Assembly (NCBI GenBank): GCA_964572155.1
Contig: CAZNDZ010000001.1
Coordinates: 648,840 to 712,839, forward strand
Length of the DNA stretch: 64,000 nucleotides
Direction of reading: 5' to 3'
Origin: an uncultured Planctomycetales bacterium
Lineage (GTDB): Bacteria > Omnitrophota > Gorgyraeia > Zapsychrales > Fredricksoniimonadaceae
Positions 23,776-62,809 of this stretch are shown piece after piece. Both the position numbers and the translations under genes were made by a program. Under the pieces are notes generated by a model. It was not told where the DNA came from. It searched no databases and saw only the letters and a program-made list of their open reading frames with translations. Position 1 is the first letter of the stretch; every line of letters begins with the position of its first letter.

Positions 23776-25472
23776 TAAAAATCTTTTATCTCATCTTGTC
23801 GGTTTTTTTCGCGCTTGGGCCCGCCATTGCGCAAGAAGCAGACGTTCCCGTCGTTGCTTCCAAACAAATGCTAGATGTTTTAGAACTCAAAGATATGGAT
23901 ATCAATGATGTTTTTAAGCTCATCTCATCTAAGACGGGCATTAATATCATCGCTGGAAAAAATGTCCAAGGGCGTGTGACGATTTATCTGAAAGATGTGG
24001 AAGTGCATGACGCATTGCATATTATTCTAGAAGCCAACGACTTGGCGTATATGGAAAGTCGCGGGATCATGCAAATTGTGCAAGCGGCAGATTTTGAACG
24101 CATGTTTGGTTACAAGTTTGGACAAACCACAGTGCGCAAAGTCGTGGCCTTAAAAGGCATGAATGCAACAGACGCGGCGGTATTATTAGCAAATTTCAAA
24201 AGCACGTCGGGAAAAGTCATTGCGGATGAGCAATCAAACTCACTGGTCATCGAGGAACAGCCTGCCAATTTAAGGAGCATGGAAGATTTCTTAAGTACGA
24301 TAGATGTGCCGGCTCAAACCAAAGCGTTTGAGCTTATGTTTGTGCAAGCCGATGCCATCACCGCGCGCATCGCCGAAATTTTAACACCAAAAGTTGGCAC
24401 CATCCGTTTTGACGCGCAATCTAATAAAATTTTTGTTAAAGATACAGAAGCAAAACTAAAAGACGTGGCAAATTTATTGCAGATGTTAGATGTGCCACGG
24501 CGCACGCAGGTTTTCGAATTAAGCTATATGAAAGCGGAAGACATGGTCAAGGCGATCACGTCGCTGTTAACCAAGGACATTGGTCACGCGGAGGTTGATG
24601 TCAAAGGTAACAAGTTGGTGGTAACAGACATCGCGCCTAAGATTGTTGAGATTACGAGGGTCATCGACGCGCTTGATAAAAAAGATCAACAGGTTCTGAT
24701 TGAGGCAAGGATTGTGCAGGTTTCGTTGACGGATAAGACCAAGCTTGGCATCAATTGGGACGCGGTGATTAATAAATGGCATGACACGCGCATGACCAAT
24801 GATTTTGGATTAGGTGATGCGGTTAATCCCAAAGGGGTGTTAAGCATTGGCACCATCGATAATGACCAATATAGTTTTGTGATGGAGGCGTTAAATTCTT
24901 CTGGGAAAACACGCCTATTATCAAACCCCAGCATCGCGGTTGTCAATAATCAGGAAGCGAAGATTTTGGTTGGGACCACCAAGCCTTATGTGACGACAAC
25001 CACCACAACCCCGTCATCCGGGCCAACGAGCATATCAGAAGCGGTGACATTCATTGACGTGGGTGTCAAGTTGACGGTCACTCCGACAATTCATAAAGAT
25101 GGTTATATCACCATGAAGATAAAGCCAGAGGTGTCTTCCGCTACATCGTCCTTGGTTACAGGTTCTAAGAATGAAATCCCCATTGTTGATACGTCGACTG
25201 TTGATACAACCATCCGCGTCATGGATGGGGTAACAATTGTTTTAGGCGGCCTTATCAAAGATGAGCGGTCAGCGAATAATAGTCAAGTGCCTGTGCTTGG
25301 TAAAATACCTCTGGTAGGTGCTGCTTTTCGCCAAAAAAGTGATTCCATAGAAAAGACTGAGATCATGGTCTTTTTAACGCCCCGCATCATTACGGGGGAT
25401 ATTCAAGCCAATGATAAGAATCCTAAGCTGATCAAAGGCGATAAAGTGTATTCCGACCATCCAATCGAGTAA
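23772..25472 (+). CDS. gspD: type II secretion system secretin GspD
   Basis: Signal peptide, N0/N1-like domains, C-terminal secretin domain (...VPVLGKIPLVGAAFRQKSDSIEKTEIMVFLTPRII...). Confidence 0.85.
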   Translation: MIKIFYLILSVFFALGPAIAQEADVPVVASKQMLDVLELKDMDINDVFKLISSKTGINIIAGKNVQGRVTIYLKDVEVHDALHIILEANDLAYMESRGIMQIVQAADFERMFGYKFGQTTVRKVVALKGMNATDAAVLLANFKSTSGKVIADEQSNSLVIEEQPANLRSMEDFLSTIDVPAQTKAFELMFVQADAITARIAEILTPKVGTIRFDAQSNKIFVKDTEAKLKDVANLLQMLDVPRRTQVFELSYMKAEDMVKAITSLLTKDIGHAEVDVKGNKLVVTDIAPKIVEITRVIDALDKKDQQVLIEARIVQVSLTDKTKLGINWDAVINKWHDTRMTNDFGLGDAVNPKGVLSIGTIDNDQYSFVMEALNSSGKTRLLSNPSIAVVNNQEAKILVGTTKPYVTTTTTTPSSGPTSISEAVTFIDVGVKLTVTPTIHKDGYITMKIKPEVSSATSSLVTGSKNEIPIVDTSTVDTTIRVMDGVTIVLGGLIKDERSANNSQVPVLGKIPLVGAAFRQKSDSIEKTEIMVFLTPRIITGDIQANDKNPKLIKGDKVYSDHPIE

Positions 25473-25481
25473 GGACAAAAC

Positions 25482-27167
25482 GTGCGTTGGCAAAAGAGAT
25501 CGCTGTTGGGACAATTTCTTTTAAATCAAGGGGCTGTTGCCCAAGAACAGCTCGATGCCGCGCTTGATGAACAAAAACGCACAAAAGAGCTTTTAGGGCA
25601 GATCCTCCTGCGTAAAGGTTATATTAGCGACGAGCAAGTCATCCTAACCTGCCTGTCAGATCAATTGCACATCGAAACAATCAGCTTAAAACAAATCACC
25701 CCAGATGCCAATGCTTTAGCGCGACTACCAGCCAAAGCCGCGAATTATTATAAAGTTTTTCCCATTAACATGAGCAATGGTGTTCTTAAAGTGGCCGTGC
25801 ATGATCCTCTGGATTTAAGGGTCTTGGATGATTTAAATCTCATGGCCCGTTGTCCGGTGGTCACAGTCTTGGCATCACAAAAAGAAATCATTGAGGCCAT
25901 CCGTGAACATTATGGCTTAGGCGCTGAGACCATTGAGCAAATGATGGGCACCACAGCCCAAATGTCCAATGAACAAGAAGTCACCGTCATTGATGAGGCT
26001 GATTCCGACGCGTCCATTAGCCGTTTCTTAAATCAAATTCTGTTGCAAGCTTATAAAGATCACGCCACCGACGTGCACATCGAGCCTTTTGAAGAATCCT
26101 TGCGCATCCGATACCGCATCGACGGGGTTTTATATGACGCTGGTATCCCATCTAACTTGAAGTATTTTGCTGATGTGTTAATCACGCGTGTCAAAGTCTT
26201 AGCCAATTTAAATATTGCTCAGAAACGTTTGCCGCAAGACGGCCGTTTTAAAGTGAAGGTGGCGGACATTGAATTGGATTTGCGGGTGTCGTTTTTACCG
26301 ACGTCCTATGGTGAAAGTGTTGTGATCCGTATTTTAAATTCAGTTAAGCTCTTGAGTTTAGAAGAATTGGGTTTTGGCCCGGCTCATCGTGAAACCATCA
26401 AGCAATTATTGGAAACACCGCATGGCATTATTTTTGTGACAGGTCCGACGGGAAGCGGGAAAACAACCACGCTCTATGCCTGCTTGTCAGCGATCAACAG
26501 CGAAGAAACAAAAATCATCACGATCGAAGACCCCATTGAATATCAACTTAAAGGCATTGTTCAAGTTCAGGCTTTCACGCAGATCGGTTTAACCTTTGCA
26601 TCAATCTTGCGCTCAGTCTTGCGTAATGATCCGGATGTGATCATGGTCGGTGAAGTTCGCGACGCAGAAACCGCGCAGATCACCATTCAAACCGCCCTGA
26701 CGGGCCATTTGGTATTTTCAACCTTGCACACCAATGATGCAGCCTCCGCCGTGACCCGCTTGTTGGACATGGGCATCGAGCCGTATCTGATCGCATCTTC
26801 CGTCGAGTGCTTTGTTGCCCAACGCTTGGTGAGAACCTTGTGCCCACATTGCAAACAGAAAGTACCATTAACACAGGATATCGCCGCAGAGTTTGGCATA
26901 AAAGCCATTGAGCCATCCGCTGTTGTCTATAAAGCCAATGGCTGTAAACATTGCCGCATGACAGGGTATGTGGGGCGAGAAATCATTTGTGAGACTTTAA
27001 AGATGAATGATGAGATCCGTGCATTGATCATGAAGCAGGCAACTGCTCAAGAGATTTTACAAAAAGCAACGATGCAAGGGATGCAGACGATGCGCGCTCA
27101 TGGTTTAAGTAAAATCTTAGCAGGCATCACCACAACAGCAGAAGTGCTGCAAGCAACTCAAGAATAG
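25482..27167 (+). CDS. gspE: type II secretion ATPase GspE
   Basis: GspE N-terminal domain, Walker A GPTGSGKTTT, Asp and His boxes, C-terminal tetracysteine CPHC...CKHC. Confidence 0.95.
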   Translation: MRWQKRSLLGQFLLNQGAVAQEQLDAALDEQKRTKELLGQILLRKGYISDEQVILTCLSDQLHIETISLKQITPDANALARLPAKAANYYKVFPINMSNGVLKVAVHDPLDLRVLDDLNLMARCPVVTVLASQKEIIEAIREHYGLGAETIEQMMGTTAQMSNEQEVTVIDEADSDASISRFLNQILLQAYKDHATDVHIEPFEESLRIRYRIDGVLYDAGIPSNLKYFADVLITRVKVLANLNIAQKRLPQDGRFKVKVADIELDLRVSFLPTSYGESVVIRILNSVKLLSLEELGFGPAHRETIKQLLETPHGIIFVTGPTGSGKTTTLYACLSAINSEETKIITIEDPIEYQLKGIVQVQAFTQIGLTFASILRSVLRNDPDVIMVGEVRDAETAQITIQTALTGHLVFSTLHTNDAASAVTRLLDMGIEPYLIASSVECFVAQRLVRTLCPHCKQKVPLTQDIAAEFGIKAIEPSAVVYKANGCKHCRMTGYVGREIICETLKMNDEIRALIMKQATAQEILQKATMQGMQTMRAHGLSKILAGITTTAEVLQATQE

Positions 27168-27179
27168 GGGCGTAGTTTC

Positions 27180-28388
27180 ATGCCAACATTTGCATACAAG
27201 GCAAAAAACTCCGGATCGTCGGTGATTGAAGGTGTTATCACGGCGGACAATCAACAATCTGCGGTGACAAAGATTTTGGAGCTGGGTCAAACACCCATCC
27301 TTGTTGAGCTTACGACGAGTAAGAATCGTGTAAAGCCATTGATGGTGCGTTCTAACGTATCAATCACAGCATTGGCGTATTTCTCTAAGTCATTAGCAGA
27401 CCTCTTAGAAGCAGGTGTGCCGTTGGTGAGGGCATTGGAATTATTGGGCAAACAGCGCATCGCGCCTGTTTTGAAAAACGCGTTAGGGCAGATTGCGACG
27501 GCGGTCAGGGATGGTTCTAGTTTATCTAAATCCTTAGAGTCTTATCCGGATATTTTTAATAAATTATATGTGAGTATGATTCGATCGTCGGAAGCGGCGG
27601 GTAATTTGACGCGGGCATTGGTTATGTTGGGGCAGAACTTGGACAAAGAGGTGGTGATTCAAAATCGTATCCGTTTGGCGTTGATGTATCCCATGATCAT
27701 TTTAAGCGTTGGTATTGCGTCGATCATTGTGTTGCTTACCTTTGTGTTGCCCAAGTTAACCGTGATGTTCGATGATTTTGGTGCAGACTTGCCTTTGCCA
27801 ACGCAGATGGTTGTGGCATTAAGTCATTTCGTGACCCATGATGGTTGGATCGTGGCATTATTATTCGCGGCCGCGACGGGCTATTTTTTAAAATACCGCA
27901 CAACCCCTCAGGGACAACAACAGTTAAGCGCGATCGTGTTGCGCATTCCGGTGATCAGTGATTTCTTAAAAGCCATATCAATTGCACGCTATACCCGCAC
28001 GGTGGCCATCCTTTTAGAAAGCGGTGTGCCCATCACAACGGCATTAGAATCAAGCATCATGGTTTTAGATAATGCGGTGTTCATTGAGCAAGCAAAACAT
28101 ATTGCAAATCAAGTGCGCATGGGCACAAGCTTGTCCGTGGCAGTTCGTTCCGCCGCTGTTTTTGGTGATTTAACTGCAAACTTGATTGCGGTCGGTGAGC
28201 AGGGTGGAAAACTTGAAAGCAATTTATTTAAAATAGCCGCGATCCATGAAGAGCAAAGTCAACACATGACGGAAAACACCTTAAATGTTTTGGGTCCCGT
28301 GGTGTTGATCTGTGTGGTCACTGTTGTTGGGGCGATGATGTTTGCGATCATTTTACCGTTAATCAAAATGAATATGATAATCAAATAG
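27180..28388 (+). CDS. gspF: type II secretion inner-membrane platform protein GspF
   Basis: 402 aa with the two repeated GspF/PilC cytoplasmic domains and 3 TM segments. Confidence 0.9.
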   Translation: MPTFAYKAKNSGSSVIEGVITADNQQSAVTKILELGQTPILVELTTSKNRVKPLMVRSNVSITALAYFSKSLADLLEAGVPLVRALELLGKQRIAPVLKNALGQIATAVRDGSSLSKSLESYPDIFNKLYVSMIRSSEAAGNLTRALVMLGQNLDKEVVIQNRIRLALMYPMIILSVGIASIIVLLTFVLPKLTVMFDDFGADLPLPTQMVVALSHFVTHDGWIVALLFAAATGYFLKYRTTPQGQQQLSAIVLRIPVISDFLKAISIARYTRTVAILLESGVPITTALESSIMVLDNAVFIEQAKHIANQVRMGTSLSVAVRSAAVFGDLTANLIAVGEQGGKLESNLFKIAAIHEEQSQHMTENTLNVLGPVVLICVVTVVGAMMFAIILPLIKMNMIIK

Positions 28389-28401
28389 GTAAGGAGAATT
28401 T

Positions 28402-28830
28402 ATGAAAGAACGTGCCTTTACGATGATCGAGATTTTATTGGTGGTCATCATGATCAGTGTGCTGGCGGCCATGGTGGTGCCAAATCTGACGGGACGGACA
28501 GATCAAGCTAAGTTGGTCGCGGCGCAAACCGACGTGGAAACCAATTTGCCTGCGGTGCTTGACCTTTATAAGATGGATAATGGTGTTTTTCCAACAACAG
28601 AACAAGGGTTGGCCGCGTTATTAACAGCGCCCGTCACAACCCCAGCCCCAGAACATTGGAATGGCCCCTACATTAAGAAAAAGAAAATGCCGCAAGATCC
28701 TTGGGGTCGGCCCTACGCGTACGTTAATCCAGGCGTGCATAATAAAGAAAGTTATGATTTGTCATCTTTCGGTGCCGACGGTATTGAAAGCAAAGATGAC
28801 ATTGTCAATTGGTTGAGCGTAAAGCCATGA
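28402..28830 (+). CDS. gspG: major pseudopilin GspG
   Basis: Prepilin leader and processing site MKERAFTMIEILLVVIMISVLAAMVVPNL; GspG-type ...DNGVFPTTEQGLAALL... Confidence 0.9.
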   Translation: MKERAFTMIEILLVVIMISVLAAMVVPNLTGRTDQAKLVAAQTDVETNLPAVLDLYKMDNGVFPTTEQGLAALLTAPVTTPAPEHWNGPYIKKKKMPQDPWGRPYAYVNPGVHNKESYDLSSFGADGIESKDDIVNWLSVKP

Positions 28831-29237
28831 TGCATGTTAACCGAGGATCCTTGATCCTTGAAGCTGTCATTGCTGTTGTGGTGATGGCCATTGGCCTTAC
28901 AACATTGATGCAAGCTTTAATGAACAATGCCAATGTTGTCAACAGCGCCCAAGAGTATGGCCGTGCGTGGTTGATCATTAATGAAAAACTTCAAGAGAAG
29001 GTCTTCTTTGATAAGACCAATATCTCGCTCGAAAATCAAGCGGTTGATGCGGCATTACCTCGCGTGAAATACGACCAAACATTCAAAACCTTAACACAAG
29101 AGCCTTGGATTGGTTTAAAGCAATTGGATTTATCCTTGCATTGGGCCAATAACGCCAATACACGCAGTCTTAGCATAAGGACCATCTTGCCCAATGATGA
29201 TACGCAACAAACAAAACAAAGCCTTTTCTACAATTAA
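28809..29237 (+). CDS. minor pseudopilin (GspI/GspH-like)
   Basis: Short prepilin-like N-terminus ...RGSLILEAVIAVVVMAIGL; likely start ATG 28827 overlapping the gspG stop. Confidence 0.5.
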   Translation: MVERKAMMHVNRGSLILEAVIAVVVMAIGLTTLMQALMNNANVVNSAQEYGRAWLIINEKLQEKVFFDKTNISLENQAVDAALPRVKYDQTFKTLTQEPWIGLKQLDLSLHWANNANTRSLSIRTILPNDDTQQTKQSLFYN

Positions 29238-29853
29238 CGTCGATCAACATGGGTTTACGCTCCTTGAAATGCTCTTAGGGGTCGTTATTACGGCGTTGGT
29301 GGGTTTTAGTTTATTTCAGATCTTTGCCAATGGCATGAACACTTATCAGCGGGCGCAATTGACAGCGAAAGTGTATTTGCAAATGTACAAAGTCTTTGAC
29401 GCGCTGGATGCCGATATCGCGGCGATCATCACGTTTGATTACAGAGCGGTGGATCCGCAATGGAAAAGTTTTCATGGTAATGCAACGTCGATGCATTTTG
29501 TTAGGAAAGCGAAGGATGGGTTACAGATGGTGTCTTACGCCGTTTATGATGACAAAAGCCGAGGCGATGAAGTCAGACGCAAGATCAACCCCTTAGTTGA
29601 CGTGCTTGCAAAGCAAACAAAGGATGTTGCTGGGGATGTTGTTGCGAAATATATACAGGATGATGGCTTTACATTAACGTATGCGCAGGCAGAGCCAGAG
29701 TCAGTCAATGGCAAGGTCAAGATACGTTGGCAAAACAGTTGGGAAGAGGAGCATCTTCCCATTGCGATTGCGGTAAAGATACGCTTTAAGCCTAATCAAG
29801 AAAAACAAGCACCGGTTGAGTTTAGCCGTATTTTTTATTTAGAAAATCGGTAA
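29194..29853 (+). CDS. minor pseudopilin GspJ-like
   Basis: Prepilin-type N-terminus QHGFTLLEMLLGVVITALVGFSLF; 219 aa. Confidence 0.5.
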   Translation: MMIRNKQNKAFSTINVDQHGFTLLEMLLGVVITALVGFSLFQIFANGMNTYQRAQLTAKVYLQMYKVFDALDADIAAIITFDYRAVDPQWKSFHGNATSMHFVRKAKDGLQMVSYAVYDDKSRGDEVRRKINPLVDVLAKQTKDVAGDVVAKYIQDDGFTLTYAQAEPESVNGKVKIRWQNSWEEEHLPIAIAVKIRFKPNQEKQAPVEFSRIFYLENR

Positions 29854-29855
29854 GA

Positions 29856-30758
29856 ATGAATATAAGAAAAAATAATTCTGGTATAATTTTAATTGCGGTG
29901 ATTGCCGTGATGATTGTGCTCACCATAGTTACCCTCAGTGCGGGGAGTCTTGTATCGACGACGATGCAGTATACTCAAAAAGAAATAGCCCGCACACGGG
30001 CCATGGCTAGTGCTTTGGCAGGGGTGAATTATGCGTTGCATTTGATGCAGGATCATCCATCGCTAGTCGACACCTGGTGGCAAAGCGGGGTGCGTGTCGA
30101 CAATAAAGAACAGGCAGGAAAGTATTTTGATCATGTGGTGTTAAGTAAAAACACACAGTTTGATGTGGACATCATGGATCAAACGCGGTATCTAAATCTA
30201 AATGCTTTAAATTTGACTAACGCGTCGCTGTTATCACGCTTGATTGTGGCGCATGGATTTTCAATGCAGCAAGGGGATGATATTGCCGCTAATGTGATTG
30301 AATGGTTAACACAAATTAAAAAAGCTCCCTTTGATGATGTTGCCGAACTTACGCTTGTCAAAGGCATGACCAAAGATATTTTTGAAAAGATCAATGTTGA
30401 TCTAACGGTGTATCCAAAATTTCCTGCCGATGGGCTGGTGGCGAATTTTTGGACAGCTTCACCTAAGTTTTATCAGGCCTTGGTGGCAGATGTCACAGCA
30501 ACGCATAAGGTGGAAAATGTTTCAACTTTCGTTGCCCTTGCGCAAAAGTATCGCACCAAAGAAAAACCGGCAAATCCCGACGGGGTAGAATTAGCCATGT
30601 TGGCCGCAGGGGGGCATGTACCAGTTGCGTTAGACTATAAAGTACATGTGGTTGGTTTTGACGCGTTAACCAAAACGCGTGTCGAGGTAGAGGCATTGAT
30701 TAACAAAGATCAAAATGGCGCGTGGGGCATTCAACGTTTTAATAGGGTGTTATTTTAA
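29856..30758 (+). CDS. gspK: minor pseudopilin GspK-like
   Basis: N-terminal TM/prepilin-like segment SGIILIAVIAVMIVLTIVTLSAG followed by a roughly 260-aa periplasmic domain, size and position typical of GspK. Confidence 0.55.
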   Translation: MNIRKNNSGIILIAVIAVMIVLTIVTLSAGSLVSTTMQYTQKEIARTRAMASALAGVNYALHLMQDHPSLVDTWWQSGVRVDNKEQAGKYFDHVVLSKNTQFDVDIMDQTRYLNLNALNLTNASLLSRLIVAHGFSMQQGDDIAANVIEWLTQIKKAPFDDVAELTLVKGMTKDIFEKINVDLTVYPKFPADGLVANFWTASPKFYQALVADVTATHKVENVSTFVALAQKYRTKEKPANPDGVELAMLAAGGHVPVALDYKVHVVGFDALTKTRVEVEALINKDQNGAWGIQRFNRVLF

Positions 30759-32122
30759 TGGGTAAACACCGCAACGTCATATCTATTACCGACGATAATC
30801 TGACATACTTGCAGGCCAAGGATGTTGGGACGCCGGTATTTCGACAAGTGAGCATTAAAGGAAAAAGTGATGCGGAAATTACGAAGCAATTATCCCTGTT
30901 GATTAAGGCGCACAAGATTGCTTTGCATCAAGTGACTGCGGTGATTAGCCGGCAAAATGTGTTGGTGCGGTTTATGACATTACCGTCGGCAGATGTTGTT
31001 GAACTTAAAAAAATGGTGGCTTTGCAAATTGGCAGCATTGTTCCTTATGCCCTTGAAGAGATTGTTTTTGATATTCAATTGCTTGGGGATGCGGGCTCAA
31101 ATCAGCGCAAAGTCATGGTCATCATTGCGCCCAAAGATGTCATTGAGCGCCAGTGGCAGATTTATACCAAGGCGGGTGTATCTCCCTCGATTGTGAGCAT
31201 CAGCTCGATGGGAGTATGGCTTTGGTATAGCCGCAGGACCGCAGATAAGCTTGGTGTCGCGTTGGTGTTGGATATCAATGAAGGAGAGGTGGAAATTTGC
31301 CTTTGCCAACACGCCCATTTGTTTACTTCAAGGGCTTTTCGATTACCGTCGTCAGATTTAGCGGCAGATGATTTTAAATTTTTGTTGAAAGAAATTGATT
31401 TAACCATTGAAGGTTACATGAAAGAACGGGTTGGCCCAGCGTTGACAAAGATCATCACCACAGGTTCTAAGCCAATACCCATTGATTTATTAACGCGCTT
31501 ACAGAAAGAATACGAATTGCCGGTTGAAGACATTGATCATGCACGTCAGATCAAAGGTTCCAATGAATCAGCGACGGCGCTCATCGGATTTTCTGCTGTT
31601 GACGCGGCCCATCAAATTAATTTAATCCCGCGACATTTGGCGGATGCGCACGTTAAAACACTGGCAGCGAAAGCGGCAAAACGCATGGCCTTGATCATGG
31701 TTGGGTTGTTTGTCATCGTTGGCGTTATCGGAGCAATCCAAGTAAATAAGAAGAATAAATATTTAGAAGAGTTAAATGATCAATGGCAAGTCACGAAGAA
31801 ACAATTGGATGGCATTGAGCAGGAAAAAGCAAAAATTAATGCGATGTCACAAGCGTTAAATGGACGGGTTGTATTTGCAGAGATTTTTAAAGTTGTTGAA
31901 CAGTCTACACCGCCGAGTGTATCTTTTTTTAACGTGAACATCAATGATCAAAAACTTTTAAGCATGCAAGGGATTGCAAAGAATCCCGCAGATATCAATG
32001 CCTTACAGGAGAGTTTGATGCGCTCCACATTATTTGTGAGTGTACAGTTAGATTTTGTGAATAAACGTTCAACGCAAGATGGGGAAGTTAGTTATTTTAA
32101 ACTATCGTGCCAATTAAAATGA
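30758..32122 (+). CDS. gspL: GspL-like (PilM/PilN-type) T2SS assembly protein
   Basis: Cytoplasmic actin-like N-terminal half, single TM (MALIMVGLFVIVGVIGAI), coiled-coil periplasmic part; located between gspK and gspM-like genes. Confidence 0.5.
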   Translation: MGKHRNVISITDDNLTYLQAKDVGTPVFRQVSIKGKSDAEITKQLSLLIKAHKIALHQVTAVISRQNVLVRFMTLPSADVVELKKMVALQIGSIVPYALEEIVFDIQLLGDAGSNQRKVMVIIAPKDVIERQWQIYTKAGVSPSIVSISSMGVWLWYSRRTADKLGVALVLDINEGEVEICLCQHAHLFTSRAFRLPSSDLAADDFKFLLKEIDLTIEGYMKERVGPALTKIITTGSKPIPIDLLTRLQKEYELPVEDIDHARQIKGSNESATALIGFSAVDAAHQINLIPRHLADAHVKTLAAKAAKRMALIMVGLFVIVGVIGAIQVNKKNKYLEELNDQWQVTKKQLDGIEQEKAKINAMSQALNGRVVFAEIFKVVEQSTPPSVSFFNVNINDQKLLSMQGIAKNPADINALQESLMRSTLFVSVQLDFVNKRSTQDGEVSYFKLSCQLK

Positions 32123-32652
32123 CCATGAGACAATTATCAAATAGGGAAAAGATCATTGCTGGCGCAACCATCATCATGGTTGTTGTTTATTTGGTCTTTT
32201 TCATCCTCATCCGTCCAGCGAAAGACATGTTGGCGGGGATTGATGATAGCATTGCAACCAGTGAACAACGCCTATCTAAAGGGAAGGTATTATTAGAAAG
32301 AGGGAGCGGTGTCCAAAAGTCGATGGATAGCTTGGTTAAAGAATGGGGACAAACCAGATCTGATGCCGAAGAGTCTTCCCAATTAATCAATGCCCTTGAA
32401 TCTGCCGCCACAACTGCGGATATCCGTATCCTTAATATCGAACCGCGCCCTATAGTCCGCGACACATTAGTCCGCTATCCTATTGCCATGACGGTTAGCG
32501 GTACATCAAAACACATCATTAAGTTTTTATCCTTAATCCAAGCCAAGCCCTTGGCATTAGATGTAGAAAACCTCAATTTAGAACGCTCTATCGATGGCAA
32601 TGCTACCATTAATGGCACTATGGTGGTGACACGTTTAAGAATACAGGGTTAA
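32107..32652 (+). CDS. gspM: GspM/PilO-like T2SS protein
   Basis: 181 aa, N-terminal TM (IIAGATIIMVVVYLVFFILI) plus periplasmic domain; last gene of the operon. Confidence 0.45.
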   Translation: MPIKMTMRQLSNREKIIAGATIIMVVVYLVFFILIRPAKDMLAGIDDSIATSEQRLSKGKVLLERGSGVQKSMDSLVKEWGQTRSDAEESSQLINALESAATTADIRILNIEPRPIVRDTLVRYPIAMTVSGTSKHIIKFLSLIQAKPLALDVENLNLERSIDGNATINGTMVVTRLRIQG

Positions 32653-47370: not shown

Positions 47371-49959
47371 ATGACCTATACCAAATCTAAAATATTAGCT
47401 CTCATCCTTCTAACGACATTTGCAAGTGCGTCAGTGTCTGTGCCTCGTGCACAGGCAGGAGAAATGACGGTGCCGCTCATGCCTAAAGCAGGGGCCATGG
47501 TTCAATTAAGCCAAGCTTTTACACCCGCACAGTTAAAGGGGATTGTTGTTCATCCAAATCAGCCGCTGCAATTTGATTTCTTGATTGGTCAAGGTGACGG
47601 CCAATTAAGCACAGAAGAAAAAAGCCAAGAATATAACACACTCATCAAATACTTTTTAGCGTCCCTAGCTGTTGCGGATAAAGACCAATGGGTGAACCTT
47701 TCGCCATATGAGCATAATCGTATTATTGAAGAAAATTTCGGCAAGACCATCATGGGGCGGGATCTTTTAGCCCAAGATTACCTGCTTAAACAAATCATGT
47801 CCTCGTTGATGTACCCTGAATCAGGATTGGGAAAAACATTTTGGGACAAGGTCTATGAGAAGGCCGGCAATGCGAATGTCCCCATCAATGCTTTTAACAA
47901 AGTTTGGATCATGCCGGATCAAGCTGTCATCCATGAGAATGGGAATACTGCTGTTATCGTAAAGAGTCATTTGAAGGTGATGTTAGAAGAAGACTACCTT
48001 GCTAAAGCAAAAAATACTACGGACACCATGCCATCGGCAACCAAAGAAATGATGCGCAACATTTTATTGCCGGAACTTGAACGGGAAGTTAATGAGGGAA
48101 AGAATTTTGCAAGCCTACGCCAAGTATTTTCAGGGATGATATTAGCAACGTGGTATAAGCGTGCATTAAAGGATTCGCTCTTGGGTCAAGTGTATGCCGA
48201 TAAGGCTAAGGTTAAGGGCATCGATCAGCCTGCTTGCCGGCAGGCAGGAACTAAGTGTGATGCAAATGAAGAGATTTACCAAGAATATCTGCAGGCTTTT
48301 AAGAAGGGCGTTTTTAATTACATCAAAGAAGATCAACAATCCATTCCCCGCAAATATTTTGCCGGCGGTATCACAGGTCTAGGCAATTTATCCCTCGATA
48401 CAAAACAAGTCAATCGCGCCATGATATCCGCAGATGTTGCCGGGACAGAAGCCGTTACCACACAATTTGATGCCGCGATGGATGTAGATCCAATTGCGAA
48501 AAAGCTGATCATTTTCAACGAAAGTATTCCGTCCTTTGACATAAAAGATCCAAAACTAAAGTATCTGACGTGGTTAATGGCTGAGGATATCGAGAAAGAC
48601 AATGGCTGGCAACGCACATATCACGCCATGGACAATCAAACATTAAGCCAAGAATTTCAGTCGTTTATCGACAGCGGTGTTTTTCAAGAACCATTTTTAA
48701 GTTCAAAGAATATGAGTCCCGAGGGCATTATTGCATTCTTAGATGCATTATCACGTCGTTACGGTGCTGTGGAGCTCGATGTTAAAGACTTAACCGAAGA
48801 CTTTATCGGCAATAGTTTATGGCTTGGACTAGAAGGTTTTGCTGCAGCCAGTGTTCGCAAAGATAAGGATCTCCATGAATCCATGGTCAAAGCCAAGGCG
48901 TGGGTGCGAGAAGTTTTTATCCGTGCAGGTTTGAATGATGCCGCGATGACGCCGGAACAGTATGTGCAAGATTTTAGACGGTTTTTAGATAGGATGGGGT
49001 CGTTAAGAGAAGAAGAGAAAGTGCATGCGGTTAACTTATTAAAAATGATTTCACATCTTCATGATCCAAGATATAGATTCGAGAATAGTATAGAATATGC
49101 TGCAGATCTAAATTTTTATATTCTTAGAATCCGAGCCGAAAAGAATCTAAAAGTGTTGCAGGCCATTGGTGCATATTTCACAGCTGAAAAGCGAAGCATT
49201 TTTGTTCCGGCGATATTTGAAGCTATCCACGATAAAATTACTAAATTATCCAAACCAGAAGCGACAATAGATTTTGATGAAGGAGTGCTTAAATTAGCAA
49301 AGTTGCATCTCCCAGACAGCTTAGGGTATCAACGGGTTGAGTTATTAGCAAATGAAAGAGTCATTGTTAATTTACAAGATGTTGCAGAGCAAAGAGATGG
49401 CGTTCTATTTAACATCAATTCGGTGTTTCGACATAAACCGTTTACCATTGAGATCATGAAAAGAAAAAGTACTAATGCATTAGGTTATGATCTTGTTTTT
49501 GTTGGGACATATGATGGCAGGACGAGTGATTTTATTATTCAGAATAATACACGTAAAGGCGTTGTTCCTATTCCTTATAGAAGTATTTTAAAAGGAAACA
49601 TGTTTGTATTAGGTCTTGATGTATTTGGCAAACAATTTGATTTTTCAAATGTTATTGTTGAAAGCGTGAAGCCATCAGAATTAAGCTCGATCTATGTTTT
49701 GTACAAACCAAAACCAAAGTATTTACCGCTATCGAAATCAGCTCTACCATATGATCAAGCAATGGCTACTGTTGCTCAAAGTGATGTGGGGGGTATTGAT
49801 TTGAACTCTGGTAACTTGGATTTGCAGATTAAGCGGGATGGGAATGGGGTGGTTATGCCATTGGTAGAGCAGGACTTAGTGCAGTTGTCCCGTATTGAAG
49901 GGCTTGTGCCTCGGATTATAGCGATTAAGCCAGCGTCTAGCTTGCCAGAGCTGCAGTAA
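47371..49959 (+). CDS. large secreted protein of unrecognised family (paralog A, 862 aa)
   Basis: Signal peptide ...ASASVSVPRAQA/GE; its N-terminal roughly 330 aa and C-terminal roughly 60 aa are clearly homologous to the ORF at 59744-62809. Confidence 0.6.
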   Translation: MTYTKSKILALILLTTFASASVSVPRAQAGEMTVPLMPKAGAMVQLSQAFTPAQLKGIVVHPNQPLQFDFLIGQGDGQLSTEEKSQEYNTLIKYFLASLAVADKDQWVNLSPYEHNRIIEENFGKTIMGRDLLAQDYLLKQIMSSLMYPESGLGKTFWDKVYEKAGNANVPINAFNKVWIMPDQAVIHENGNTAVIVKSHLKVMLEEDYLAKAKNTTDTMPSATKEMMRNILLPELEREVNEGKNFASLRQVFSGMILATWYKRALKDSLLGQVYADKAKVKGIDQPACRQAGTKCDANEEIYQEYLQAFKKGVFNYIKEDQQSIPRKYFAGGITGLGNLSLDTKQVNRAMISADVAGTEAVTTQFDAAMDVDPIAKKLIIFNESIPSFDIKDPKLKYLTWLMAEDIEKDNGWQRTYHAMDNQTLSQEFQSFIDSGVFQEPFLSSKNMSPEGIIAFLDALSRRYGAVELDVKDLTEDFIGNSLWLGLEGFAAASVRKDKDLHESMVKAKAWVREVFIRAGLNDAAMTPEQYVQDFRRFLDRMGSLREEEKVHAVNLLKMISHLHDPRYRFENSIEYAADLNFYILRIRAEKNLKVLQAIGAYFTAEKRSIFVPAIFEAIHDKITKLSKPEATIDFDEGVLKLAKLHLPDSLGYQRVELLANERVIVNLQDVAEQRDGVLFNINSVFRHKPFTIEIMKRKSTNALGYDLVFVGTYDGRTSDFIIQNNTRKGVVPIPYRSILKGNMFVLGLDVFGKQFDFSNVIVESVKPSELSSIYVLYKPKPKYLPLSKSALPYDQAMATVAQSDVGGIDLNSGNLDLQIKRDGNGVVMPLVEQDLVQLSRIEGLVPRIIAIKPASSLPELQ

Positions 49960-50003: not shown

Positions 50004-50744
50004 ATGACAGATATTCCTAATTTTCCAGCTCCAAAAAAAGATAATGTAACCAAGCGCGCGGCCATTTTCCTGCAAGTGATTGTGGTTGTCGTGATTGTTT
50101 TTATTGGCGCCAGCCTTTACCGCACCATTTTAGACCAAGCTTCCCAATTAGAAGTTACTAAGAACAATGTTAATGAACAAAAAGATCAGGTAAGTTCTTT
50201 AAGTGCTCAAATTAGCAGCTTAAACGATAAGATCAAAGAATATAAGAAACAAAGCGATGATTTGGATGCTAGCGTGGCTCAAGAAAAAGAGACTGTGGAT
50301 GCCATGAAGAAGAATTATGATGCGCTTGAAGTGAAGATCAATGATTTAAATCAAGAATTCGACGATAAATTTGGCCGTTTAAGCAAAGAAATCACGGATG
50401 TTAAAGAATTAGTTGGGCCAGTTAAGGATGATATTGCTTTAATGAAGGAAGATACTCAGAAATGGCAAAAGGATTATGTGGCAGCCTTAAGTGATTTGCA
50501 AGTCCATGTTACCCGCGCGGCAGGTTTGATTGCTCAAATGCGTGATGAAGTTAATAAGAAGATTGACTTTATTAGCATGGTGCAAGAAAAAATGATCAAA
50601 GACGCCGCCGTTGCCAATAGTATTCCCATGGTGTCTAAACCAACAGAAGACCCAGATCGTACTGTTCATCATCAGATCATGAATAGTGATTTGTCAGAGT
50701 TTAAGGACAAGGCAGATTATAAGGCCGAGACCACCACGAAGTAA
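50004..50744 (+). CDS. membrane-anchored coiled-coil protein
   Basis: TM helix AAIFLQVIVVVVIVFIGASL followed by a long heptad-rich region. Confidence 0.4.
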   Translation: MTDIPNFPAPKKDNVTKRAAIFLQVIVVVVIVFIGASLYRTILDQASQLEVTKNNVNEQKDQVSSLSAQISSLNDKIKEYKKQSDDLDASVAQEKETVDAMKKNYDALEVKINDLNQEFDDKFGRLSKEITDVKELVGPVKDDIALMKEDTQKWQKDYVAALSDLQVHVTRAAGLIAQMRDEVNKKIDFISMVQEKMIKDAAVANSIPMVSKPTEDPDRTVHHQIMNSDLSEFKDKADYKAETTTK

Positions 50745-54110: not shown

Positions 54111-54932
54111 ATGCGGCTGGCTGACCTCCACATTCATACGTACTACTCCGACAGCACATCATCGCCAGAGGAAGTGGTAGAACAGGCTGTTGCGGCTAAA
54201 ATGAGCGCAATTGCCATTACCGATCATGATATCATCGACGGCGTGGCCCCAACCATCGCCGCGGCCCAAGGCAAAGATTTAGAAATCATCCCAGGTGTTG
54301 AATTATCCGCAGAATATGAAGGTAAAGACATTCACATCTTAGGGTATTTCATTGATGTGGAAAAAGGTCCGTTGGTTGAGAAATGTGAAATATTCTTAGA
54401 CGGCCGTGTTGCGCGCATGAAGCAGATGATCATGAATTTGCGTGGTGTTGGGATTACCAATATTGAATATGAAGAAATCAGTGCCATGACCAAAGGCAGG
54501 GCAGTGGGTCGAGCACATTTGGCGTACTTGATGGTGCAAAAGGGTATTGTTAAGAATTATAAGGAAGTCTTTGATAAATATTTAAGCGAAGGCTGCCCAG
54601 GGTATGCACCGAAGTTCAAACAAAGCCCATTTGAAACCATTGATTTGATTCACCAAAGTGGTGGATTAGCCGTGATGGCGCATCCAATGCTCACCCTTAA
54701 AGATGAATTGATATCCCCGATGGTGAAGGCGGGTTTAGATGGTTTAGAAATTTATTATCCAAATCTCTCCGATACCGTGCATAATTTTTATTATAAGTTA
54801 GCAAAAAAACACAAGCTATTAATGACGGGCGGCTCCGACGCTCATGGTAAAGCCAAGCCTTATACGTACATTGGTAAGGCATCCATTGATTATGCGTTGG
54901 TGGAAGCCATGAAGGAACGTTTGAAACGATGA
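54111..54932 (+). CDS. PHP-domain metal-dependent phosphoesterase (TrpH/YciV-like)
   Basis: MRLADLHIHTYYSDS...AITDHD... PHP motifs I-II and later His/Asp motifs (GGSDAHG). Confidence 0.75.
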   Translation: MRLADLHIHTYYSDSTSSPEEVVEQAVAAKMSAIAITDHDIIDGVAPTIAAAQGKDLEIIPGVELSAEYEGKDIHILGYFIDVEKGPLVEKCEIFLDGRVARMKQMIMNLRGVGITNIEYEEISAMTKGRAVGRAHLAYLMVQKGIVKNYKEVFDKYLSEGCPGYAPKFKQSPFETIDLIHQSGGLAVMAHPMLTLKDELISPMVKAGLDGLEIYYPNLSDTVHNFYYKLAKKHKLLMTGGSDAHGKAKPYTYIGKASIDYALVEAMKERLKR

Positions 54933-56609: not shown

Positions 56610-56882
56610 TTATCGTTTTTCTACAGCTAATTTCTCCGCAACCCACATGCGGATTAGTGTTAAATAACCTAGCCCACGTTTTGCAGCTGCTTTCTTTAGA
56701 GAATTAATCATTTGATCATCAATACGCAGAGAGATAAGTCTTTTGCGTGGTTTTGGAAAATGAACATTTTTAACTTCTTCTAATTCCTCTTCGAATTCAG
56801 TAATTGAATGCGTCTTCCAAAAAGCTGCTTCTTCATTCTTTGATTTAAACTTTGGTATAGTTTTAGCAATTGTTTCTTTCAT
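56610..56882 (-). CDS. brnA: BrnA-family antitoxin (RHH/CopG-like)
   Basis: 90 aa ...FEEELEEV...KRLISLRIDDQMINSLKKAAAKRGLGYLTLIRMWV... typical BrnA; 1-nt gap to upstream brnT on the same strand. Confidence 0.7.
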   Translation of the reverse strand: MKETIAKTIPKFKSKNEEAAFWKTHSITEFEEELEEVKNVHFPKPRKRLISLRIDDQMINSLKKAAAKRGLGYLTLIRMWVAEKLAVEKR

Positions 56883-56883
56883 A

Positions 56884-57183
56884 TTATCTCCGTTGAAATC
56901 GATGTCGTTCTGAATCAGTCATGCTCCTTGCAGTGATTACATAAACTTTGCTTTTTGGTTTAAGTTCCATAATAACTGTTAAATAGCGACCTTGGTCAGT
57001 CCGACCAAGAACATAGAAACGATCTTGTCGACTTTTTAATATCAAGGGGTTGTTAAAGCAAGCCTCCTCAGCTTCTTCTGGACTTACATGGTGCTCGGCA
57101 ATATGGGGGACATTAAAATGATCCCATATGAAGGATTTAATGATCACTAGGTATCCTTTCTTTAAGTATATATGTATATACAA
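56884..57183 (-). CDS. brnT: BrnT-family (DUF497) ribonuclease toxin
   Basis: ...FIWDHFNVPHIAEHHVSPEEAEEACFNNP...RFYVLGRTDQGRYLTVI... matches BrnT/DUF497 conservation; true start may lie downstream of ATG 57183. Confidence 0.65.
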   Translation of the reverse strand: MYIHIYLKKGYLVIIKSFIWDHFNVPHIAEHHVSPEEAEEACFNNPLILKSRQDRFYVLGRTDQGRYLTVIMELKPKSKVYVITARSMTDSERHRFQRR

Positions 57184-59743: not shown

Positions 59744-62700
59744 ATGCAGAAAGCCCTTTTTAGCCTTATTTTAGTTAGTTTCTTATCCTCAACAATTTCG
59801 CTTCCAGCTGCACGAGCACAGGTGGTTTTACCTCAGATGCCGGCGCCTGGGACTATGGTTGACGTAACGCCTGCGTTTACACCAGCCTACTTAAAAGGTC
59901 TTGTCATTCATCCTGAATATCCGCTGCAATTTGATTTTCTCGTCCATCGTGGGCAAGGAAATTTAAGTGATTCACAAAAAAATCAAGAATACTCAAAGCT
60001 CATCAAGTATTTTCTAACCGCATTAACCATCTCAGAAAAAGATCAATGGGTGAATTTAAGTCCTTATGAAAAAGAGCGCATCATCCCAGACACATTCGGC
60101 CAGACGCAAATGGGGCAGGACCTGTTAGCTCAAGATTATATGCTCAAGCAGTTGTCCGCGAGCTTGCTTTATCCTGAAGGGGAAGCTGGTAAGCGATTTT
60201 GGTCGAGTATTTATGCATCTGCTAAAAAGCATGGCGGGCTAAATGTGCCTCTTAATGCCTTTAATAAAGTATGGATTGTCCCAGACAAAGCTGTGCTGTA
60301 TGAAAAAGGCAACACCGTTTATGTTTTAGAAAATCATTTGAAGGTGATGTTGGAGGAAGATTATTTAGCTAAGGGTAAGAATAAAATAAAATCTTCTAAT
60401 ACGAATTCTGAAATCATTAAACAAATCATCCTTCCTGAAATTGAAAAAGAAATCAATACCGGCAAAAATTTCGCAGCCTTGCGTCAAGTATATAGCGGCA
60501 TGTTGTTGGCGACCTGGTATAAACGCGCGTTAAAAGAATCATTATTAAACAAGGTTTATGCTAATCAAGCCAAAGTGCAAGGCGTTGATGCTAATCCAGA
60601 AAACAATCAAGCGATCTACGCGCAGTATTTGCAGGCTTTTAAAAAAGGCGCATTTAATTTGATCAAAGACACAGACGAGATGGGCGTGTCTGGTCCAAGG
60701 AAATATTTTGCAGGTGGGACAAAATCATACGATCCTAATAAAATTATTGTCTTAAAAAAGATAGATAGTGCGATGGCAGAGGGAGTTAATGATGAAGAAG
60801 AAAATGTAGATATAGCCCACGTTCGACTAGGATCACAAACAAATGGCTCAGTTCAAAGCATTTATCGGTTTCGAGATGCTAGTCCGTATAAACGAATTGC
60901 TAGAAAAGTAGGAATGGTGCCACGTATAAAGGTAAGTAAAGGTGCTGAAGCTACGGGGGCAGTCTCAGAAGCAAGATTGCCGGATATTGTTTTAGAGCAA
61001 TCAGTTCCAAAGAAGATATTGCAGCGTTCAAATCAACATGCTATCAGAGCAAAGCTAAGAAAGATTATACAAATAAGAGAAAAGATTTCGGAAGGGCTTG
61101 ATTTATACATGTCGAATACTGGAGATATGGGATTTGTGTTGGGAGTAAATTATGAGGTTGAGAAAAACAAAGGCTGGATTTTCCAAGATGAGTACAGAAA
61201 AATGAATGGATTAGCCGGGTGGGGGTTGTTTTCAAAGATGATGTATAAGAATAATTTAACCAATACATTACCTGGGGCGCAAAGCATTCAATTAAATCCT
61301 ATCACAGAGTCGCAAATGCGCATAGTTTTAGGCGCTGTTAAATATAAGCGTTATTGGGATATTATTGAACCATATTTGCCTAATGAGGATTTTGATGCTG
61401 AGCTTGAGATTTATCAGTTTTTAGCCAATGACATTGGTTTAACACTCGGTACTTATAACGAAGATTATCCTGCGCCTTCAAGAGTTAAGCAGAAAACAAC
61501 ATATTATTTGAAAGATGCGTTAAATATTTCAAAAGATGAGTTAGAAGCAAAAATGCTTACAACATTACTCAATTTGGAATGGTTTTTACAACAAGATGCC
61601 GCTATGTCTTCGCGAAGAGAATTTCTATCAAGAGTGTGGCTTGCTGTCTTGGCAGCAACTGGGGCGATCAATTCTACGGGAAATTCTGAATATAGGGAAT
61701 TGGTTGGTAATGTTGGGATGACATTTCGATTTATTGAGCGCAATTTTCGAAGTCCTTACCCAGATCCTGTTGTTGCTCGGGCTAGTTTTTTAGAGAAGAT
61801 GGCTATCTTGCATGAAAAGAGTGTGGATATTGAAGTTAGTCTAGAGAAACTCTCAAAAATAATTAAAGGAAAGCTCTTCAAAGAAACTAGGCAAGGGGCA
61901 ATGGAATATTTGCTTGAGACCAGAGAAATGTTATTGCTTCGAGAATATAGACTATTAGATAATTTATTATTGAGTAATCCTCGACAAAATGCTGTTTTGG
62001 TTAGAGAGCGTGCATATGAAATTTTAAATAATGTTCCAATGCCAGCCTATATTCAGGAAGAATATAAAGCCTTGATTAAGAAGACAATTAATGATTCTGC
62101 TCAAGCATCTATTGAAAATAGATTTCAACGATATGCCGACATTGGAAAGTTGTTTGAGGGGAATCCGGAGGTTTTAAAGAAGGGATGGTGGGTGGCTTTT
62201 GATTTGGATAGAACGAAGGATATTGTAGGGGATGAGCGTCAGATACAAATGGTTAGATTATTGAATAAGGTTTTGATTGATCATGTTGGTCAAGATGTGC
62301 AATTTTTTTCTACCTGGCGTGTGGATATTCATTTTCAAAAGGAAGAAGGTTTTATGTATATTCCCTCGTCACTAAAAAAGGGGCAATTGTCTGCGTTATT
62401 AGATGATATACGTTTAGCATTTAAGACATTATCAAAAGGTCAAACAGTCACATTTGCAGCACTGCCTGCCAGACAAGTCGGTTTGATCAAAGCGAATCAT
62501 AAGCAGCTGTTTAATATTGTGGGGCCAGATAAGATGGATGAAATTTTCTTTTCTACATTAAGAGAATCAAAGGGCAAACGCGATGTAGCAAGGACTGACA
62601 CATATGGGGATAAGACAGTTTTTGTTCCTAAGGGGGGTATTGATATGAACCCAGATGGATTAGAGCTTGAGATTAAGCGGGATCAAACGATAAAGATGTC

Positions 62701-62809
62701 TCAGATGAATGTTAGTTCCATTGATTTAGGCCAGATTCAAGGGTTTGTACCACGCATTTTATCCATCGTTCCCGCCTCGGAAACGTCGGTTTTTAGCAGT
62801 TTGCAATAA
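59744..62809 (+). CDS. large secreted protein of unrecognised family (paralog B, 1021 aa)
   Basis: Signal peptide ...ISLPAARAQ/VV; N-terminal roughly 330 aa align closely with the 47371-49959 protein (PLQFDFL, DQWVNLSPYE, LLAQDY, NAFNKVWI.PD.AV, LKVMLEEDYLAKxKN, FAALRQV.SGM.LATWYKRALK); shared C-terminal ...GFVPRIL.I.PAS... motif. Confidence 0.6.
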   Translation: MQKALFSLILVSFLSSTISLPAARAQVVLPQMPAPGTMVDVTPAFTPAYLKGLVIHPEYPLQFDFLVHRGQGNLSDSQKNQEYSKLIKYFLTALTISEKDQWVNLSPYEKERIIPDTFGQTQMGQDLLAQDYMLKQLSASLLYPEGEAGKRFWSSIYASAKKHGGLNVPLNAFNKVWIVPDKAVLYEKGNTVYVLENHLKVMLEEDYLAKGKNKIKSSNTNSEIIKQIILPEIEKEINTGKNFAALRQVYSGMLLATWYKRALKESLLNKVYANQAKVQGVDANPENNQAIYAQYLQAFKKGAFNLIKDTDEMGVSGPRKYFAGGTKSYDPNKIIVLKKIDSAMAEGVNDEEENVDIAHVRLGSQTNGSVQSIYRFRDASPYKRIARKVGMVPRIKVSKGAEATGAVSEARLPDIVLEQSVPKKILQRSNQHAIRAKLRKIIQIREKISEGLDLYMSNTGDMGFVLGVNYEVEKNKGWIFQDEYRKMNGLAGWGLFSKMMYKNNLTNTLPGAQSIQLNPITESQMRIVLGAVKYKRYWDIIEPYLPNEDFDAELEIYQFLANDIGLTLGTYNEDYPAPSRVKQKTTYYLKDALNISKDELEAKMLTTLLNLEWFLQQDAAMSSRREFLSRVWLAVLAATGAINSTGNSEYRELVGNVGMTFRFIERNFRSPYPDPVVARASFLEKMAILHEKSVDIEVSLEKLSKIIKGKLFKETRQGAMEYLLETREMLLLREYRLLDNLLLSNPRQNAVLVRERAYEILNNVPMPAYIQEEYKALIKKTINDSAQASIENRFQRYADIGKLFEGNPEVLKKGWWVAFDLDRTKDIVGDERQIQMVRLLNKVLIDHVGQDVQFFSTWRVDIHFQKEEGFMYIPSSLKKGQLSALLDDIRLAFKTLSKGQTVTFAALPARQVGLIKANHKQLFNIVGPDKMDEIFFSTLRESKGKRDVARTDTYGDKTVFVPKGGIDMNPDGLELEIKRDQTIKMSQMNVSSIDLGQIQGFVPRILSIVPASETSVFSSLQ

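Follow-up and report, generated by a model that had tools for sequence, protein, structure and literature searches.

Exported Omnitrophota proteins with exchangeable cassettes between constant ends, joined by a D-x-A-M motif

The 64,000-nucleotide stretch analysed here (hereafter the window; contig CAZNDZ010000001.1 of assembly GCA_964572155.1) holds two genes on the forward strand, A (an open reading frame (ORF) of 862 amino acids (aa), 47371-49959) and B (1021 aa, 59744-62809), whose products are exported cassette-carrier proteins: head and tail are constant and enclose exchangeable, protein-like cassettes that are joined by the four-residue motif D-x-A-M. They belong to a very large, undescribed, multi-copy family of exported proteins that is known only from Omnitrophota, a phylum of nanobacteria, and both carry every hallmark of that family, namely the signal peptide, the motifs of the N-terminal domain (N-domain) and the C-terminal module (C-module). 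A first-pass annotation of the window had picked out the two genes as secreted paralogs of unrecognised family; the D-x-A-M junctions, the cassette build and the wholesale replacement of the middles were absent from it.

Constant ends and exchangeable middles

The products of A and B align over residues 7-333 and 3-325, respectively (188/333 identities, 56%; E 2e-125, BLASTP), which bears out the homologous N-terminal domain of ~330 aa that had been claimed for them. A second segment, residues 807-856 of A and 964-1012 of B (46% identity, E 8e-9, BLASTP), shows the reported C-terminal motif to be a module of ~50 aa. Beyond these two segments the BLASTP alignment was empty, i.e., the middles are unrelated, and tblastn found no third copy in the 64-kb window. 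The similarity is not one of low-complexity sequence: across 182 sequences, a divergent subfamily included, ~45 positions of the head, many of them aromatic or charged, are conserved at a level of 97% or more. Sec signal peptides had been correctly called on both proteins (Table 1). The accompanying statement that they have no transmembrane segments is slightly off with regard to hydrophobic segments, since B holds an internal twin-arginine-like segment at aa 621-645 (MSSRREFLSRVWLAVLAATGA).

The idea that the pair is private to its genome was refuted, as the family is Omnitrophota-wide and has thousands of members. Searching with A against 5.8 billion protein clusters gave more than 3,730 significant matches among the 8,000 candidates scored, of which the best 120 (E < 1e-129; 514-1490 aa in length) were 50-68% identical to A and covered its N-terminal 36-53% alone; the database protein P0001 is identical to A. 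The named matches were all hypothetical proteins of Candidatus Omnitrophica metagenome-assembled genomes. Scanning one genome per species retrieved 19 loci (13 titled Omnitrophota and six auto-labelled ‘uncultured Planctomycetales’), a metagenome scan retrieved at least 582 copies, and the source genome itself (a contig of 1,344,502 bp) holds at least five, i.e., A, B, P0003, P0010 and P0028. A phage origin was discarded, given that the domain was found on just three of 2.9 million viral contigs. As the first-pass annotation had stated, no known family could be assigned: A had no match with E <= 0.01 in Pfam-A 2025, NCBIfam 20, PHROGs 4 or PADLOC 2, searches with B of Pfam-A, NCBIfam, PHROGs and PADLOC returned noise far below the cut-offs (GUN4_N E 0.094, FlgH E 0.038, Csm3 E 0.0086), PDB sequence searches were also negative (with single sequence as well as profile), and comparison of the N-domain with solved structures and known folds gave no sequence or fold match. 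Neither the family nor the D-x-A-M motif is mentioned in the literature covered by keyword searches and the Omnitrophota genome papers.

The anatomy of the family was derived from 121 database members and 68 complete genes from the retrieved loci, which after deduplication gave 176 members with both head and tail. The head opens with a signal peptide whose cleavage site, ..AQA↓.E, is conserved (arrows mark cleavage points throughout), followed by a domain of ~335 aa in which the kept motifs are WVNLSP.E..R, T.MGRD.L..DY.LKQ, FNKVWI.P, S145 and FW158, and in which Ser111 and Lys140 are invariant. In an AlphaFold2 (AF2) model, the N-domain of A (predicted template modelling score, pTM, 0.78) is predicted to be mostly helical with two hairpins. 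The tail is a module of ~55 aa (GGID.N..NL.L.IKRDG.GVPLPL.QQDM.QL..I.GFVP.IIEI.P) present in 115 of 121 members, and head and tail identities are correlated across pairs (r = 0.76). The C-module was also considered as a free-standing sorting tag and rejected, as a profile search gave mostly contig-end fragments; those ORFs in the loci that contain the C-module only are for the most part family genes that have been cut short or broken up. In three family genes, one in-frame stop codon intervenes (L024 at ~11995, TAA; L064 at ~13399, TAG; L086 at ~13315, TGA), past which the same frame runs on as far as the C-module; decay to a pseudogene, sequencing error and read-through are all conceivable causes.

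The middles, in turn, range from 192 to 2098 aa in length (median 690) and are built from cassettes of ~90-400 aa, each of which opens with Met and closes with Asp-x-Ala. Any similarity to the middle of another member was seen in only 77 of the 176 members, and for 86 of 444 pieces (>=60 aa) a homolog occurs in a different protein or at a different position, with >=70% coverage of both pieces. Recognisable domains are sporadic and include receiver, HATPase_c, HEAT, WD40-type, DnaJ, cNMP-binding, LysM, low-molecular-weight phosphatase and PrmA-like methyltransferase domains. The receiver (CheY-like) modules open with ‘M..(K/R)ILV(I/A)DDD’ and close with ‘D.A’. A Sec-, Tat- or lipoprotein-type signal directly follows the Met at 31 of 389 cassette starts (8%), compared to 1.3% at random positions; these starts include aa 621 of B, and in P0089 a LysM cassette is preceded by its own signal. 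Scanning eight of the signal-bearing cassettes revealed HEAT repeats in one and nothing else.

Pairs of members whose N-domains are 75-90% identical share a middle stretch of >=60 aa in 4% of cases, as against 35% at >=90% identity. Where the N-domains are 90-95% identical, pairwise identity drops just past RKYFxGG and resumes at GGID, meaning that head and tail serve as recombination flanks for the exchange of the whole array. The cassettes behave as evolutionary units, and entire arrays are exchanged between near-identical frames. High-scoring segment pairs between variable regions end near motifs in 41% of cases (14% for random positions) and start near them in 13% (15% for random positions); we judged the module-level homology test to be more informative than this boundary test.

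Cysteine makes up 0.06% of the residues in the middles and 1.11% of those in neighbouring proteins, an 18-fold depletion, and 124 of the 176 members are entirely cysteine-free, against 1.35 expected. B has no cysteine, and A has two, C289 and C296, six residues apart. Cysteine scarcity is typical of proteins that cross an oxidising periplasm and thread through a narrow channel while unfolded (autotransporter passengers and the substrates of type I and type III secretion are examples) and is atypical of cytoplasmic proteins and of substrates of the type II secretion system (T2SS), which fold first. The near-absence of cysteine in the family would therefore fit unfolded transport better than folded export through a T2SS. 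The two cysteines of A lie in a loop at aa 286-298 (~48226-48264; QPACRQAGTKCDA), where the Cys-x6-Cys arrangement takes the place of the QDPK.NE found in most homologs; an insert of the same form (QPAC..AG..C) recurs in several unrelated members, which suggests a small disulfide-loop variant of the N-domain.

The D-x-A-M junction

D.AM occurs 290 times in the 121 proteins, against 15.1 occurrences expected from shuffling (19-fold), and neighbouring genes are without enrichment (28 against 22 expected). Within the motif, D, A and M are fixed, although N or S may stand for D. Met is strict at internal sites, where M is counted 218 times and the next residue 64 times, and Q in its place occurs next to head and tail. 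The flanks are unconstrained except for T/A/V/N/S after the Met, followed by A/G/S. The majority of members have their first motif no more than ~30 aa past the end of the N-domain, 111 of 176 have a motif within the 30 aa before the C-module, and the remaining motifs split the middle into pieces that are mostly 90-400 aa long. Within the window, A has four [DN].AM sites and B has two, and two other ORFs have one apiece; the GAYNNNGCNATG sites on both strands of the 64 kb number five, each of which falls within A or B and in their reading frame. Every motif of A coincides, in the AF2 model, with a low-confidence break between structured segments.

Two translational roles were considered for the junction and rejected. 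It is not a general start-codon context, as the real gene starts in the window are without GAY NNN GCN, and it does not provide internal translation starts, as the junction AUG lacks the upstream Shine-Dalgarno-like signal that the real gene starts in the window have. The codons of the junction are biased. In 120 family ORFs with an N-domain, drawn from the retrieved loci and from the window, GCG accounts for 52% of the Ala codons that precede the junction Met, compared to 22-24% in Ala-Met controls (chi-square p = 1e-8); where x is Ala, GCG is used in 75% for the pre-Met Ala and in 70% for x itself. GATGCGGCGATG and GACGCGGCGATG together account for 49 of 260 junction sites, and the consensus 12-mer is GAYGCGGCGATG. 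Outside these 12 bases, no nucleotide conservation was found.

Export, proposed processing and competing explanations

Tentatively, and on the strength of the sequence features above, we favour reading A and B as Sec-exported, polyprotein-like cargo carriers with putative processing at D-x-A↓M. Sec would carry the protein across the inner membrane, onward movement would occur in the unfolded state, and the constant head and/or tail may provide the handles by which a conserved partner exports or delivers the protein. The junctions would then be endoproteolytic sites and A and B polyproteins, cleavage of which would free cassettes with native-like N-termini. Such release could take place outside the cell or within a host or prey cell, where cassettes that bear Sec or Tat signals could be re-targeted. 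Cleavage would make the simplest sense of the intact signal peptides and stand-alone-type domains that are found exactly after the Met. A more far-reaching version seems rather unlikely to us: that Omnitrophota operate a multi-copy system throughout the phylum, in which whole protein-coding units, some with a Sec or Tat signal of their own, are captured in frame between the constant head and tail and form one cysteine-free polyprotein. This would leave the cell, perhaps for the inside of a host or prey cell, and be split at D-x-A↓M into separate functional proteins, with the GAYGCGGCGATG joint doubling as a shuffling site.

Several points weigh against processing at the junctions. A protease domain could not be recognised in the constant frame by Pfam, NCBIfam or fold searches, and a conserved adjacent protease or transporter gene was absent from 103 loci. 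Four residues are short for a protease site, with flanks that are unconstrained, and some divergent members of up to 2,856 aa are without any D.AM, so that the frame can do without the motif. Proteolysis alone also leaves the synonymous GCG bias unexplained, which suggests that the joint has an extra role at the DNA or RNA level. In addition, internal signal peptides are awkward within a chain that has already been exported, and receiver, HATPase, DnaJ and methyltransferase domains have no obvious extracellular role unless they are delivered into another cell.

Of the alternatives, the one that fares best, although we doubt it, is that of an uncleaved modular surface or secreted protein (an adhesin or an enzyme scaffold), in which head and tail serve for anchoring or export, the middle is presented as a single chain and D-x-A-M is a structural linker or helix cap. 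The adhesin idea of the first-pass annotation gained no support, although an adhesin or effector role is conceivable. The signal peptide and the exclusion of cysteine are in keeping with display of this kind, as is the HEAT, WD40, LysM and repeat-like cargo of some members; moreover, D, N and S are classic helix N-cap residues, and the NRAM of A opens a predicted helix. A mere cap, however, would not need the strict internal Met, nor would it precede unrelated folds such as receiver modules, which start with a beta-strand, and both the whole signal peptides right after the Met and the cytoplasmic-type domains are left unexplained.

It is unlikely, by comparison with the favoured polyprotein reading, that the junction acts mainly at the DNA level, with GAYGCGGCGATG as a microhomology or recombination joint for in-frame cassette capture and the D-x-A-M peptide as its by-product, an explanation that is compatible with cleavage. 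It would account for the GCG bias at both Ala codons and for the two recurrent 12-mers, for modules that reappear across proteins and positions with their bounds at the motif, and for the very fast turnover of the middles. Against this, whole-array swaps break at the borders of the constant domains rather than at the motif, replacement of D by N or S fits similarity at the protein level, the change from M to Q in the linker and pre-C-module positions takes two to three base changes, nucleotide conservation stops at 12 bases, and there is no linked recombinase.

We regard as highly improbable a cytoplasmic ‘protein-level operon’, whose separate products would arise by cytoplasmic cleavage or internal AUG initiation and would each be targeted on their own, with export of the Sec/Tat cassettes and retention of the receiver or DnaJ cassettes. 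Such an arrangement would accommodate the native-like N-termini, the private signals of some cassettes (e.g., the LysM cassette of P0089) and the cytoplasmic-type domains of others, but the 18-fold cysteine depletion of the cassettes is unexpected for cytoplasmic proteins, the internal AUGs lack the Shine-Dalgarno-like signal of real gene starts in the window, and the N-terminal Sec signal would draw the chain outside. Least probable of all is the proposal of the first-pass annotation that A and B are ordinary T2SS exoproteins, which would leave the cytoplasm by Sec, fold in the periplasm and be expelled through the Gsp machinery encoded nearby: it draws on a complete gspD-E-F-G...K-L/M cluster at 23.7-32.6 kb, on Sec signals with an AXA site and on T2SS-like loci being common beside large Omnitrophota proteins (West-Roberts 2023), but 15 kb and several housekeeping genes separate the cluster from A, gsp genes recur beside family genes in none of 103 loci (a pilin-like gene does in four), and the exclusion of cysteine would suit unfolded transport rather than export in the folded state.

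Among known systems, the layout of the MARTX toxins appears to be the nearest functional parallel, built from unrelated parts. These toxins of Vibrio and its relatives, 3.5-5 thousand aa in length, have constant ends, a strain-variable, recombining array of effectors and short processing sites, and the present family likewise has a variable cassette array between constant termini (a likeness of layout, not of homology). However, A, B and the families matched by 39 long members are without RTX/GD-rich repeats or the cysteine protease domain Peptidase_C80 (Pfam), and whereas MARTX toxins use type I secretion and Leu-x sites, the family has a Sec signal, a length of ~0.6-2.9 thousand aa and D-x-A-M, at which cleavage is putative. 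Polymorphic toxins (CdiA with VENN, Rhs with DPxGL) resemble the family in their conserved trafficking part, the motif before the variable part, rapid replacement and many paralogs; theirs is a variable extreme C-terminus with an immunity gene, whereas in the family both ends are constant and the cassettes are serial. Pfam searches found no TPS (two-partner secretion) or Rhs domain in A or B, and no downstream gene is recurrent in the 103 loci. The Porphyromonas polyproteins of the type IX secretion system (RgpA, Kgp and HagA) also combine a signal peptide, modules cut after export and a conserved C-terminal domain, but the family has a C-module of ~55 aa without a match to that domain (Pfam, NCBIfam), comes from another phylum and has an extra conserved head of 335 aa. 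TpsA proteins and autotransporters share the Sec signal, a conserved handle of ~300 aa and passengers that are nearly cysteine-free or have closely spaced pairs, while the N-domain of the family is a mix of helices and hairpins, not a beta-helix, and has no Haemagg_act or barrel match (Pfam). A possible lead on the protease side is CtpA, an S41 peptidase that processes the C-terminus of photosystem II D1 after D-L-A, ahead of A or S. Here a Ser-Lys protease on the lumen or periplasm side cuts after a D-x-A triplet; the family, by contrast, is without a linked S41 domain, and its invariant Ser111 and Lys140 are suggestive but unsupported.

Omnitrophota are widespread, uncultured and ultra-small, and are thought to live on or prey upon microbes. 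The family fills a notable share of the 1.3-Mb genome and is among the most conserved yet most variable gene sets seen in this analysis. For large Omnitrophota proteins, the lack of known cleavage points has been noted explicitly (West-Roberts 2023). If the junctions are cleavage sites, they would offer a testable answer as to whether and where the giant proteins of this phylum are cut, thousands of candidate effectors would be catalogued and already parsed into units, and the partners of the ~335-aa domain and the ~55-aa module should expose an unknown export or delivery route. They would also supply a first concrete candidate for a cleavage site in the large multi-module proteins that the phylum has, and the combination of capture, export and cutting with a shuffling joint, if true, would make this a bacterial system for effector delivery and cassette exchange of a new kind. 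Even without cleavage, the 19-fold enrichment of the junction, the 18-fold cysteine depletion and the swapping of arrays remain strong signals to explain.

Feature map and genomic surroundings

The features of A and B are listed in Table 1. A has three D-x-A-M junctions and one NRAM, and B has two junctions and one DSAQ, with none before its C-module.

Table 1 Features of the products of A and B and their positions in the window. pLDDT, predicted local distance difference test.
Feature	Position	Strand	Basis
A signal peptide, aa 1-29 (...VPRAQA↓GE)	47371..47457	+	sequence reading; family consensus K..AF..S..P.AQA.E
A constant N-domain core, aa 30-333, ending RKYFAGG	47458..48369	+	56% identical to B; 50-68% to >100 homologs
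A post-domain hairpin/linker, aa 334-366	48370..48468	+	predicted strand-helix-strand, pLDDT ~83-87
A NRAM motif in linker, aa 348	48412-48423	+	motif position
A junction 1, D-A-A-M (GATGCCGCGATG), aa 367	48469..48480	+	
Cassette A1, aa 370-525, helical orphan modelled with low confidence	48478..48945	+	
A junction 2, D-A-A-M (GATGCCGCGATG), aa 523	48937..48948	+	
Cassette A2, aa 526-797, orphan	48946..49761	+	
A junction 3, D-Q-A-M, aa 795, 8 residues ahead of C-module	49753..49764	+	
A constant C-terminal module, aa 807-862 (GGIDLN...IKRDG...GLVPRIIAIKP...)	49789..49956	+	pLDDT 72-92
B signal peptide, aa 1-25 (...PAARA↓QV)	59744..59818	+	sequence reading
B constant N-domain core, aa 26-325	59819..60718	+	
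B junction 1, D-S-A-M, aa 341	60764..60775	+	
Cassette B1, aa 344-620, orphan	60773..61603	+	
B junction 2, D-A-A-M (GATGCCGCTATG), aa 618	61595..61606	+	
Cassette B2, aa 621-786, opens with Tat-like signal MSSRREFLSRVWLAVLAATGA	61604..62101	+	no relatives found
B D-S-A-Q motif, aa 784, closing cassette B2	62093-62104	+	
Module B3, aa 787-963, pre-C-module unit common to divergent subfamily	62102..62632	+	phmmer
B constant C-terminal module, aa 964-1021	62633..62806	+	

A word-indexed search found no relatives of aa 370-797 of A, a negative that carries little weight since the identical entry P0001 was missed as well. An exhaustive phmmer search with aa 621-963 of B against 1.84 billion representatives gave 13 matches, B included, all of them to aa ~790-961. 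In the divergent subfamily this unit directly precedes a variant tail (GGIDLT..IKFHLDPA..GFVPVII; more fully GGIDLT..IKFHLDPA.L..L.NA.GFVPVII). The subfamily (P0230 and P0232-P0239) also has a variant head, FNPP.L.G.KV...PF.F.FILD, and its members reach 2856 aa; some contain six to seven D.AM sites and others zero.

The genes between A and B agree with those listed previously, comprising ribBA, ribH, nusB, a gene for a PHP-domain protein, ribD, ribE, a BrnT/BrnA pair on the minus strand and three two-component genes (for a response regulator, a hybrid histidine kinase and a double-receiver regulator). The PHP-domain gene (54111-54932, +) forms part of the riboflavin cluster, with nusB before it and ribD after it, and the BrnT toxin/BrnA (CopG-type) antitoxin pair (56610-57183, -) separates the riboflavin genes from the two-component genes. 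No meaning could be seen in the ‘bracketing’ of this region: an all-versus-all comparison of neighbours across the 103 related loci, in which a conserved operon partner (protease, transporter or immunity gene) was sought and rejected, found no neighbour in more than nine loci, and neither a TpsB-like nor a recombinase gene is a conserved neighbour in these loci. Family copies sit in tandem or amid housekeeping genes, with tandem same-strand copies in 13 of 104 loci.

Directly downstream of A is a gene for a 246-aa coiled-coil protein (50004-50744, +) with weak DivIC/ZapG-like matches, which also follows A on the independent Logan contig L001 and is not found beside other family members. Upstream of A there is a sugar-nucleotide/glycosyltransferase cluster, with housekeeping genes beyond. 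The T2SS/pseudopilus cluster mentioned above (23772-32652, +) encodes the secretin GspD, GspE, GspF, GspG, minor pseudopilins, a GspK-like protein, a PilM/N fusion and a GspM/PilO-like protein. Further upstream still, an ORF for an encapsulated toxin of the Tc/Rhs type (9394-15834, +) encodes 2146 aa with SpvB, TcdB_toxin_midN, FG-GAP and RHS-repeat domains, and contains just four cysteines (0.19%).

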